The notes under the pieces were generated by a model that was not told the DNA's origin, did not search any database, and saw nothing but the letters and a program-made list of their open reading frames with translations. 64,000 nucleotides of DNA from Escherichia coli O157:H7 (lineage in GTDB: Bacteria; Pseudomonadota; Gammaproteobacteria; Enterobacterales; Enterobacteriaceae), in the NCBI RefSeq assembly GCF_013167455.1, contig NZ_CP038328.1; one strand, 5' to 3'. The first letter of the stretch is position 1, and each line of letters opens with the position of its first letter. Both the position numbers and the translations under genes were made by a program. Positions 13,444 to 49,860 of the stretch are shown in pieces.

Positions 13444-13466
13444 GCCGTCAAACTCATTGGTTTTGC

Positions 13467-13498
13467 AGCCCGGATGAGGCATTCACGCCGCATCCGGC
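13467..13498. repeat. REP-like palindromic element
   Basis: GCCCGGATGAGGCATTCACGCCGCATCCGGC, the same motif family seen at 31177 and 49762. Confidence 0.5.
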
Positions 13499-13776: not shown

Positions 13777-13960
13777 AGTGGCTCATTCACCGACTTATGT
13801 CAGCCCCTTCGGGACGTGCTACATAAAATTCGAATGACGCACAACAAGGTGCCTGCCGTCCAACTTCTGATATCAGCGTAGCTATATCAACCATCGGGCG
13901 AAACGTCGAGTTAGGCACCGCCTTATTCCATAACAAAGCCGGGTAATTCCCGGCTTTGTT
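13777..13960 (+). ncRNA. glmY: GlmY small RNA
   Basis: Sequence AGTGGCTCATTCACCGACTTATGTCAGCCCCTTCGGGACG... recognised as GlmY; ends in the hairpin AAAGCCGGG/CCCGGCTTT plus U-tract; about 184 nt. Confidence 0.85.
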
Positions 13961-14018: not shown

Positions 14019-15446
14019 TTGAAACGCTGGCCCGTTTTTCCCCGCTCATTACGACAACTGGTAATGCTGGCATTTTTGCTGATTCTGCTGCCCCTGTTGG
14101 TGCTGGCATGGCAAGCCTGGCAAAGCCTGAATGCGCTTAGCGACCAGGCGGCGCTGGTCAACCGCACCACGCTTATCGATGCCCGGCGCAGCGAAGCAAT
14201 GACCAACGCGGCGCTGGAGATGGAGCGTAGCTACCGTCAGTATTGCGTGCTGGATGACCCTACGCTTGCGAAGGTTTATCAAAGCCAGCGCAAGCGTTAC
14301 AGCGAAATGCTCGATGCCCACGCAGGCGTACTGCCAGACGATAAACTTTACCAGGCATTGCGTCAGGACTTGAACAATCTGGCCCAACTTCAGTGCAACA
14401 ACAGTGGTCCCGATGCTGCTGCTGCCGCGCGTCTGGAAGCCTTTGCCAGTGCCAATACCGAAATGGTACAGGCCACGCGCACAGTAGTGTTCTCTCGTGG
14501 GCAGCAACTTCAGCGTGAAATCGCCGAACGTGGGCAATATTTTGGTTGGCAATCGCTGGTGCTATTTCTGGTGAGTCTGGTAATGGTACTGCTTTTCACG
14601 CGGATGATTATCGGGCCGGTGAAAAATATTGAACGGATGATCAATCGGTTGGGGGAAGGGCGTTCTCTGGGCAATAGCGTTTCGTTCAGTGGACCGAGCG
14701 AGTTACGCTCGGTTGGGCAACGTATTCTTTGGTTAAGTGAGCGCCTGTCATGGCTGGAATCCCAACGCCATCAATTTTTAAGACATTTATCTCATGAATT
14801 AAAAACGCCACTGGCGAGTATGCGCGAGGGCACTGAATTACTGGCTGATCAGGTTGTCGGGCCGCTTACGCCAGAGCAAAAAGAGGTGGTGAGCATTCTT
14901 GATAGCAGCAGCCGCAATTTGCAAAAACTGATCGAACAACTGCTTGATTACAACCGTAAACAGGCGGACAGTGCGGTGGAACTAGATAATGTTGAGTTAG
15001 CACCGCTGGTGGAGACAGTAGTTTCTGCTCATAGCCTGCCCGCACGGGCTAAAATGATGCATACCGACGTCGATCTCAAAGCAACAGCTTGCCTGGCGGA
15101 GCCAATGCTGCTGATGAGCGTACTGGATAATCTTTACTCCAATGCGGTGCACTACGGGGCTGAATCCGGTAACATTTGCCTTCGCAGCAGTTTACATGGT
15201 GCGCGGGTTTATATTGATGTCATCAATACAGGCACGCCCATTCCGCAAGAGGAACGCGCCATGATCTTCGAACCCTTTTTTCAGGGAAGCCACCAGCGAA
15301 AAGGGGCGGTGAAGGGCAGCGGTCTGGGATTAAGCATTGCCAGGGATTGTATTCGCCGTATGCAAGGGGAACTGTATCTGGTCGACGAGAGCGGGCAAGA
15401 CGTTTGTTTCCGCATTGAATTACCGTCGTCGAAAAACACGAAATAA
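14019..15446 (+). CDS. glrK: Sensor histidine kinase GlrK
   Basis: 475-aa product from a TTG start; transmembrane N-terminus, H-box HELKTPL and an ATPase domain. Confidence 0.88.
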   Translation: MKRWPVFPRSLRQLVMLAFLLILLPLLVLAWQAWQSLNALSDQAALVNRTTLIDARRSEAMTNAALEMERSYRQYCVLDDPTLAKVYQSQRKRYSEMLDAHAGVLPDDKLYQALRQDLNNLAQLQCNNSGPDAAAAARLEAFASANTEMVQATRTVVFSRGQQLQREIAERGQYFGWQSLVLFLVSLVMVLLFTRMIIGPVKNIERMINRLGEGRSLGNSVSFSGPSELRSVGQRILWLSERLSWLESQRHQFLRHLSHELKTPLASMREGTELLADQVVGPLTPEQKEVVSILDSSSRNLQKLIEQLLDYNRKQADSAVELDNVELAPLVETVVSAHSLPARAKMMHTDVDLKATACLAEPMLLMSVLDNLYSNAVHYGAESGNICLRSSLHGARVYIDVINTGTPIPQEERAMIFEPFFQGSHQRKGAVKGSGLGLSIARDCIRRMQGELYLVDESGQDVCFRIELPSSKNTK

Positions 15447-15610
15447 TGCTAACAGCCTATCCCATCAGGCTATTTTATTTGTCAGTTCGGCCCCGGGCAG
15501 TGCTCGAAATCCTCACGTACGACATGTACGCTCCGGTTTCTCCGCGCTGTCCATGTCCAAACTGTCTGCAACAATTACGCCCACTGGGATAGGCTTTAAG
15601 TCTGGTGAAT

Positions 15611-16324
15611 ATGCGACACATTTTTCAACGATTATTGCCCCGACGGCTGTGGCTGGCAGGGCTGCCATGTCTGGCATTGCTAGGTTGCGTGCAGAATCAC
15701 AATAAGCCAGCCATTGATACGCCAGCAGAAGAAAAAATTCCGGTTTATCAACTGGCTGACTATCTTTCTACTGAATGTAGCGACATCTGGGCGCTGCAAG
15801 GTAAATCAACCGAAACCAATCCGCTTTACTGGCTGCGGGCGATGGATTGTGCTGATCGTTTAATGCCTGCGCAGTCGCGTCAGCAAGCTCGCCAATATGA
15901 CGACGGCAGCTGGCAAAATACCTTTAAACAAGGGATTTTGCTCGCCGACGCCAAAATTACGCCATATGAGCGCCGCCAGCTGGTCGCGCGTATTGAAGCG
16001 TTAAGTACCGAGATCCCGGCACAGGTTCGCCCACTGTATCAACTCTGGCGCGACGGTCAGGCGCTGCAACTGCAACTGGCGGAAGAGCGCCAACGCTACA
16101 GTAAACTCCAGCAGTCCAGCGACAGCGAGCTGGATACATTGCGCCAGCAACATCACGTTCTACAGCAGCAACTGGAACTCACCACCCGCAAGCTGGAAAA
16201 CCTGACTGATATTGAACGCCAGCTCTCGACCCGCAAACCGGCTGGAAATTTCTCGCCGGATACGCCACACGAGAGTGAAAAGCCCGCGCCATCCACCCAT
16301 GAGGTCACTCCTGATGAGCCATAA
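15611..16324 (+). CDS. qseG: Two-component-system accessory lipoprotein QseG (YfhG)
   Basis: 237-aa product with a lipobox-like LLGC signal and a Q-rich coiled C-terminus; sits between glrK and glrR. Confidence 0.85.
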   Translation: MRHIFQRLLPRRLWLAGLPCLALLGCVQNHNKPAIDTPAEEKIPVYQLADYLSTECSDIWALQGKSTETNPLYWLRAMDCADRLMPAQSRQQARQYDDGSWQNTFKQGILLADAKITPYERRQLVARIEALSTEIPAQVRPLYQLWRDGQALQLQLAEERQRYSKLQQSSDSELDTLRQQHHVLQQQLELTTRKLENLTDIERQLSTRKPAGNFSPDTPHESEKPAPSTHEVTPDEP

Positions 16325-48292: not shown

Positions 48293-48469
48293 TTTCCGCG
48301 TCATGCTTCACGCCGCAGATGCGTTGGCTGCGCTCGTTCACCCCAGTCACATAGTTATCTATGCTCCTGGGGCTTCACTCACTTGCCGCCTTCCTGCAAC
48401 GCGAATCATTTAGCGGAAAAATCCTGGGGCTGCCAACTGGCGGCCCTTTTACAAAGAAGGATAACTAAA

Positions 48470-49761: not shown

Positions 49762-49860
<99 letters not shown>

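Follow-up and report, generated by a model that had tools for sequence, protein, structure and literature searches.

A palindromic element between glrK and qseG

The window analyzed here is a 64,000-nt stretch of the Escherichia coli O157:H7 contig NZ_CP038328.1, in which glrK (qseE) is followed by a spacer, qseG and glrR. GlmY lies upstream of this spacer, at 13777-13924. Over positions 15200-15900, the sequence matches strain PV15-279 with 100% identity. The initial annotation had pointed to three structures in the spacer: a hairpin with a T-run right after the glrK stop codon, an inverted copy of the hairpin's left arm just before qseG, and a separate palindrome. We found all three, and mapped them together with the surrounding features as follows.

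15444..15446, + strand: glrK (qseE) stop codon TAA; overlaps an ATG by its final A (TAATG), as read from the sequence
15446..15592, + strand: 48-codon open reading frame (ORF); starts at the ATG that overlaps the glrK stop and ends with a TAG in the right arm
15450..15452, no strand: left TAA copy of the 3-bp target-site duplication; filled site compared with the empty site AATAATGCTAAGTCTGGTG in relative L081
15453..15596, no strand: palindromic repeat element of 144 nt, very probably an RSA-like MITE; bounds from alignment with the pheM-pheS copy, the empty site and the 54-copy family alignment
15453..15464, no strand: left terminal inverted arm CAGCCTATCCCA, 12 nt; inverted-repeat search and compensatory changes in the family
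15454..15480, + strand: small hairpin AGCCT/AGGCT with an 8-nt loop, plus T-run; left arm plus the family-invariant CAGGCTATTTTA motif
15515..15581, + strand: sub-threshold similarity to RF02228 (Xanthomonas sRNA sX9); 31.4 bits against a gathering score of 44
15516..15530, + strand: apical hairpin CGTAC-N5-GTACG; stem near-invariant across the family, loop variable
15585..15596, no strand: right terminal inverted arm TGGGATAGGCTT, 12 nt; inverted-repeat search and compensatory changes in the family
15597..15599, no strand: right TAA copy of the target-site duplication; empty-site comparison and family flank count
15604..15613, + strand: qseG ribosome-binding region; GGTGA at 15604-15608 and ATG at 15611-15613, 15 nt past the element end

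The hairpin directly after the glrK stop is formed by AGCCT (15454-15458) and AGGCT (15467-15471), with ATTTTATTT (15472-15480) behind it. Its left arm does recur in inverted form before qseG: the sequence AGCCTATCCCA (15454-15464) has a perfect 11-nt reverse complement at 15585-15595. The inverted arms extend to 16 nt at 88% (15449-15464 and 15585-15600). As terminal inverted repeats they comprise 12-nt arms, 11 nt of which are perfectly complementary, and the ends of the element read GAGCCTGKCCCAT...ATGGGMCAGGCTC. The palindrome at 15516-15530 has the sequence reported for it, CGTAC-GACAT-GTACG. The hairpin, the arms and the apex palindrome are parts of one 144-nt element, and the arms are its terminal inverted repeats. 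The qseG ribosome-binding region downstream is conserved in Salmonella and Citrobacter.

Other repeats occur elsewhere in the window. REP-like palindromes are found at 13465-13498, 31173-31206 and 49762-49795, with 1-4 mismatches to the REP consensus; the one at 13465-13498 directly follows purL and overlaps a weak naRNA4 match. An ERIC-like core at 48335-48378 contains both ERIC primer sites with 3 mismatches each.

The element was inserted at a TAA trinucleotide

We compared the glrK-qseG junction of O157:H7 with the junctions of related bacteria. The two genes are annotated 1 nt apart in Salmonella enterica, 23 nt apart in Citrobacter koseri and 2 nt apart in Citrobacter sp. NCU1. A relative with 84% nucleotide identity (QseG 78% identical) has a gap of 17 nt, and the two genes overlap in a close Escherichia relative represented by locus L081 (90.7% nucleotide identity). 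This last relative has an empty site with a single TAA (...AATAATGCTAAGTCTGGTGAATATG..., core AATAATGCTAAGTCTGGTG). The O157 junction without 15453-15599 would read ...GCTAAGTCTGG..., and the filled site in O157 reads ...AATAATGC, TAA, the 144-nt element (CAGCC...AGGCTT), TAA and GTCTGGTGAATATG. The insertion thus consists of the 144-nt element plus a duplicated TAA, adding 147 nt. Escherichia sp. E4930 (92.3% nucleotide identity) carries the element, and the insertion therefore predates the diversification of E. coli.

The duplication is a property of the family to which the element belongs. Among 54 aligned family copies, 12 carry TAA on both sides or TTA on both sides when the flanks are read strictly at the alignment columns; chance would give well under one. 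Further copies show a TAA or TTA duplication with a 1-nt offset. The terminal inverted repeats, the duplicated target, the empty site, the small size and a copy number that differs between genomes are hallmarks of a MITE. We searched 152 plasmid records for a transposase or an autonomous partner with matching ends and found none; the sole plasmid match to the ends only is a copy truncated by IS26.

These comparisons point to the following history. The element was most likely inserted in an ancestor that E. coli shares with one or more cryptic Escherichia lineages. Its target was the TAA located 4 nt after the glrK stop codon, at a junction where the two genes were then adjacent or overlapping, and this TAA was duplicated on insertion with a gain of 147 nt. 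The family spreads at such TAA/TTA sites, presumably by means of a transposase acting in trans.

The element belongs to a dispersed repeat family

A blastn search with the 158-nt spacer found matches in 5425 of 5426 complete E. coli genomes, at a median of 5 places per genome (range 1-8) and at 6 places each in K-12 MG1655, C600 and ER1709. Matches to the element span 143-148 nt, and the element is fixed in E. coli. Another copy is located between the pheM leader and pheS, and the inverted arms mark both limits of its similarity to the spacer.

We scanned one genome per species with a gapped pattern of 23 bases (CAGGCTATTTTA, 12-22 bases, GGGCAGTGCTC). The scan returned 73 loci across many genera, including Yersinia, Serratia, Erwinia, Pantoea, Edwardsiella, Klebsiella, Citrobacter, Buttiauxella, Rahnella and Ewingella, as well as several Escherichia species and others. 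The family alignment used throughout this work is composed of 54 short-form copies. It has a core of ~120 nt that is near-invariant from Escherichia to Yersinia, Edwardsiella and Erwinia, with terminal arms that are more variable. In a long form of the repeat, GGGCAGTGCTCAC is followed by ~60 nt of additional sequence that forms small hairpins of its own; this form is found at loci L005, L024, L039, L044, L046, L053, L063, L069 and L070. Pantoea brenneri (L023 2506-2694; L021) has two cores arranged head to tail and 124 nt apart, forming a tandem dimer in which a short junction hairpin is common to both cores.

Copies of the element are also present on 146 plasmid records. A copy with 92.6% identity to the consensus is carried by many conjugative or large plasmids of Klebsiella, Citrobacter and Enterobacter (hits H46-H85; for example, NZ_CP026234.1 191560-191708), where it overlaps the annotated end of an RND efflux permease gene. 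The record that supplied locus L001 (NZ_CP090612.1) is labeled 'plasmid' pDCE7-1, is 420 kb long and has the core chromosomal genes thrS-infC-rpmI-rplT-pheMST. Another record, NZ_BPQU01000174.1 (L030, 234 bp), is labeled Methylobacterium mesophilicum. Its sequence and that of the Escherichia ucpA-cysP copy, flanks included, are identical, probably through contamination of that assembly.

Relative to flanking genes, 19 copies are co-oriented between tandem genes and 16 are anti-oriented between tandem genes; 9 lie between convergent genes and 4 between divergent genes. The family is without strand bias and avoids promoter regions. Most copies separate genes that are co-transcribed, and many occupy a narrow gap between cistrons of a single operon. 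Typical intercistronic sites are entC-entE, sufB-sufC, ubiH-ubiI, cysG-cysD, flgH-flgI, hemE-nfi, ucpA-cysP, glnA-glnL and the region upstream of hisG, and the stop codon of the upstream gene is often the flanking TAA of the copy. Serratia was ruled out as a carrier of the same spacer, its copies being located between flgH and flgI. Some Escherichia have a copy in the glnA-glnL spacer, the GlnZ sRNA region (L016 11383-11527, L036 1236-1380). We rejected the element as a part of the K-12 GlnZ sRNA: the K-12 glnA-glnL spacer (L089 1929-2122) has a REP instead. The glnA 3'UTR is known to vary from strain to strain (bioRxiv 10.1101/2022.07.25.501400), and the glnA-glnL copies add to this variation.

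Taken together, the empty site, the duplicated TAA and the dispersed copies lead us to conclude with considerable confidence that the spacer is a 144-nt non-coding, MITE-like mobile palindromic repeat, RSA-like, that was inserted between glrK and qseG and is tolerated there.

The fold is conserved across the family

Folding the region 15440-15615, which the initial annotation had put forward as a check, produced a single long hairpin (-59.3 kcal/mol, z -4.5). The element itself (15454-15598) folds at -57.7 kcal/mol (z -6.0), and 0 of 200 shuffled sequences fold as well; the opposite strand of the same segment reaches -65.9 kcal/mol (z -7.5). Taken singly, the two small hairpins are unremarkable. 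The AGCCT/AGGCT hairpin has an energy of -6.0 kcal/mol (z -1.2), equaled by 28 of 200 shuffles, and the CGTAC-N5-GTACG hairpin has an energy of -5.0 kcal/mol (z -0.8). The whole fold is far beyond chance.

We projected a 39-pair hairpin onto the 54-copy alignment. Its partners are paired in 90.7% of cases, versus 30-41% when they are slid by 1-3 columns, and it contains 160 double-sided changes, versus 37-63 in the slid controls. The observed pairing measures were reached by none of 500 shuffles. Compensatory changes occur at 11 of 11 pairs in the terminal helix, which is present in most of the copies, and at 4 of 4 pairs of an inner helix. For example, one pair is GC in 25 copies and AU in 24, and the next is AU in 23, CG in 17 and GC in 11.

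Two further interpretations of this conservation were rejected. A strand preference pointing to RNA is not found: both strands fold equally across the family (mean energy -62.6 vs -63.8 kcal/mol, p 0.18), and orientation relative to genes is random. The pairs called by RNAalifold include many G-U and few A-C because they were chosen on one strand. Compensatory evolution in situ was also rejected, with only 1 double change kept within orthologous sets; the compensation seen in the family is mainly between non-orthologous copies. Within orthologous sets, core changes affect 37 of 1400 paired positions and 103 of 1559 unpaired positions, in comparisons that are not independent of each other. Our reading is that the fold matters when new copies arise, with mild constraint in place, and that this is no proof of a host function. 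The conservation of the ~120-nt core across distant genera, together with the slower change of paired positions, hints at constraint beyond selfish spread.

Transcript ends and termination

The qseEGF genes form one weakly expressed operon whose single sigma-70 promoter is located 25 bp ahead of qseE; for the qseE-qseG region, the authors of that description put forward an additional, internal promoter as a hypothesis only (PMC6075780). The initial annotation had suggested that the spacer could attenuate or process the glrK-qseG-glrR message. The structure behind this suggestion is real and lies within the operon, but nothing supports a dedicated attenuator. Mapping of 3' ends had also been proposed, and public Term-seq and Rho tables list none in the K-12 spacer (26895xx-26896xx), a result that has low power and limited weight because the operon is weakly expressed (PMC7815308). 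In the same data, no Term-seq 3'-end flank in K-12 contains CAGGCTATTTTA, including at + oriented copies (PMC7815308).

We weighed these results against the explanation that the hairpin and T-run after glrK are a dedicated intrinsic terminator or attenuator that partly stops transcription before qseG. A terminator-like site is indeed called at 15454-15471, followed by ATTTTATTTG, and the T-run is invariant across the family. However, the stem, with 5 bp closing an 8-nt loop, folds at -6 kcal/mol (z -1.2) and so falls short of the stable G+C-rich stem of an intrinsic terminator, and it competes with a long-range pairing of about -58 kcal/mol. No K-12 3' end contains the motif, as noted above, and the motif is inherited by every copy, including those transcribed in the opposite direction. 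The scan for terminator-like sites called 8 in 5 kb, compared to 6.3 expected, and shows no enrichment over shuffled sequence. The hairpin with its T-run is the conserved left end of every family copy and is weak, and we consider a dedicated attenuator very unlikely.

The copy upstream of pheS is associated with an RNA end. A Term-seq 3' end at 1798987(-), classified as 'orphan' and Rho-independent, is located 45 nt upstream of pheS (PMC7815308, Supplementary file 1). Its flank reads ...AGCCTGATGGGATAGGCTCT up to the end and AAGTCC beyond it, so that the end coincides exactly with the final nucleotide of the pheS copy's terminal arm (L001 2999-3144). A discrete RNA end is therefore produced at the hairpin base of one family member, a result that fits either an exonuclease stop or U-less termination. 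By extension from the pheS copy, an effect of the glrK-qseG spacer on mRNA ends or processing is conceivable.

This result bears on the explanation that the element has been exapted as RNA, with its hairpin serving as an exonuclease barrier or an RNase cleavage site that sets the stability ratio of qseE versus qseG-qseF. The position of the stable pheS-copy end, exactly at the hairpin base, argues for such a role, as do the slower paired positions within orthologous sets and the report that ERIC elements in Yersinia change the expression of neighboring genes through RNA hairpins (PMC2267715). Exaptation is also compatible with a mobile origin. On the other hand, the K-12 spacer has no listed 3' end or Rho region, orientation to transcription in the family is random (19 vs 16), and relatives manage without the element. 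We regard exaptation as a possibility worth keeping in mind but on balance unlikely.

An ORF bridges the insertion

The ATG at 15446, which overlaps the glrK stop codon, begins a 48-codon ORF that passes through the entire element and closes with the TAG at 15590-15592, 18 nt short of the qseG ATG and in the same frame as qseG. The annotation of the empty-site relative uses this ATG as the start of qseG. We examined 8 Escherichia variants, and in 7 of them the ORF remains uninterrupted over 41-50 codons; one of these 7 has a 1-nt deletion that moves it into another open frame. In the eighth variant, E. coli STO_Bone2 (NZ_CP054161.1, L083 121-290), the TAG in the right arm is mutated and the ORF reads into qseG, covering at least 93 codons in the stretch examined. 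A 55-residue N-terminal extension of QseG is predicted for STO_Bone2 and is possible.

These observations raise the prospect of a translational relay, in which ribosomes restart at the ATG at 15446, translate the 48 codons, melt the hairpin and so keep glrK and qseG coupled. Because the insertion is 147 nt long, exactly 49 codons, the ORF shares its frame with qseG, and in the Escherichia variants it is open over its usual length or, in one case, fused to qseG. Across the 54 family copies, 48 have no stop codon in frame 0 of the + orientation and 35 have none in frame 2, and the reverse frames are closed in nearly all copies. Yet the frame used at glrK-qseG (+1) is open in just 9 of 54 copies, the ATG is preceded by no Shine-Dalgarno sequence, and strain SNPs are few, giving little power to detect selection. 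Neither the ORF peptide nor the spacer coordinates are among the entries listed in one small-ORF supplement (bioRxiv 10.1101/2021.07.02.450978). A putative relay from glrK to qseG is possible but unsupported, and we consider it improbable.

Likely role of the element and broader implications

We propose that the element now most likely persists as a tolerated hairpin within the qseEGF mRNA. It would be co-transcribed with the qseEGF message and would form a hairpin of about -58 kcal/mol. Such a hairpin would loop the insert out, leaving the glrK stop codon ~20 nt from the qseG ribosome-binding site, and its base could stall 3'-to-5' exonucleases, as may occur at the pheS sister copy. The element would then be a tolerated selfish insertion, probably near neutral, with at most a modest and unselected effect on the qseE:qseG ratio. 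An effect on qseG expression is plausible but unproven, and nothing shows the element to be a purpose-built regulator or an evolved attenuator.

A broader reading is that the family represents a conserved structured nucleic-acid module, with the fold as its functional unit, that has been co-opted at glrK-qseG in the Escherichia lineage, including EHEC. This reading is motivated by the near-invariant core, the preservation of stems by compensation and the distant likeness to sX9 (see below). The fold might then serve in mobilization as a single strand, or it might be a portable module that forms 3' ends or stabilizes transcripts in host mRNAs. At glrK-qseG, the module would uncouple the lipoprotein QseG from the kinase QseE, or re-couple them through the in-frame bridging ORF. 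We consider this broader reading speculative and rather doubtful. Co-option, if it has occurred, would make the element a compact case of a mobile palindrome rewiring expression within a virulence-linked operon.

Recognition of the element as a tolerated mobile repeat has consequences for annotation and for experiments. It removes a false lead: the hairpin, the T-run and the inverted copy are the anatomy of a repeat and not a bespoke regulatory spacer. It also sets E. coli (O157:H7 included) apart from Salmonella, Citrobacter and the closest relatives of E. coli: between the kinase gene and qseG, which encodes the limiting lipoprotein, E. coli has 147 additional, strongly folding nucleotides. 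For this reason, results on qseG expression in one species may not hold in another. A deletion or fusion that disrupts the spacer may alter mRNA folding.

Comparison with known repeats and RNA families

We compared the element to the RNA families in Rfam, and no family reaches threshold in the spacer. The closest similarity is to RF02228 (sX9), which scores 31.4 bits at the spacer and 25.6-38.7 bits at 7 other copies, on the same strand, relative to a gathering score of 44; none of 17 loci is reported at the RF02228 gathering threshold. The alignment places the right half of the element against the full 76-position model, with ~72% identity over the first 46 positions. Matching segments in other copies are L050 2958-3032, L040 800-866, L008 1549-1615, L033 2043-2110, L012 286-362, L025 1489-1565 and L001 3062-3127. 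sX9 is a 75-nt Xanthomonas RNA that is visible on Northern blots (PMC3300014), and counts of all copies rank it among the most often annotated sRNA families (PMC9029176), which is what one would expect of a repeat. It differs from the element in extent, sX9 being a 75-nt RNA and the matching segment being half of a 144-nt DNA repeat. The alignment suggests a possible distant kinship of sX9 with this repeat family, which we take as a lead and not as membership.

The likeness to sX9 also raises the question whether the spacer contains a small RNA gene of its own or an internal promoter that drives qseG-glrR. The similarity to a Xanthomonas sRNA favors the former, but every sX9 score is under the gathering score. 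No sigma-70-like site is found on the + strand of 15447-15610, and copies that sit inside operons in either orientation are a poor fit to a gene with its own promoter. We consider both an sRNA gene and an internal promoter extremely improbable.

Among known intergenic repeats, REP/BIME elements resemble ours in being extragenic palindromes inside operons, and REPs protect upstream mRNA from 3' exonucleases. They are unlike the element in their size (~35-40 bp), in their number (hundreds per genome) and in being without terminal inverted repeats and target duplication. Membership in REP/BIME was rejected, with a best local match to the REP consensus of 7 of 34 bases, and Box C gave no match to the element. 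ERIC/IRU repeats (127 bp) are more alike: they are of similar size, form a long imperfect palindrome, are transcribed within intergenic regions in both orientations and fold into RNA hairpins. ERIC/IRU membership was nevertheless rejected, as the best local matches to the ERIC core primers are 6-9 of 22 bases. The copy number in E. coli is also different, about 5-6 for the element versus about 20 for ERIC.

A 3-bp TWA target duplication is characteristic of Tourist/PIF-Harbinger MITEs and of bacterial IS5-family subgroups. The element has in common with Tourist/PIF-Harbinger-type MITEs its terminal repeats, TAA/TTA duplication, small size, many copies and empty site. It departs from them in that its whole interior is conserved and palindromic, and not the ends alone.

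The closest correspondence is to RSA, a repeat name from the Blattner-era annotation, which the K-12 GenBank annotation lists with a length of 150/151 bp and 6 occurrences (PMC5172473, Table 1) and which is also named BEE95 (Bachellier & Hofnung 1996, cited in PMC3751351). The literature we found on RSA/BEE95 gives the name, length and copy number, with no sequence or coordinates; searches of papers for the conserved motifs of the element found nothing relevant, and NC_000913.3 has no annotated feature in the spacer. RSA is a unit of ~150 bp with 6 copies in K-12 that is dispersed, intergenic and enterobacterial, and the same is true of the element. We know of no difference between the two, which are likened here by description and not base by base. 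From the length, copy number and description, we infer that the element is almost certainly one of the six K-12 RSA repeats. The element at glrK-qseG is in this sense essentially already known as a repeat.
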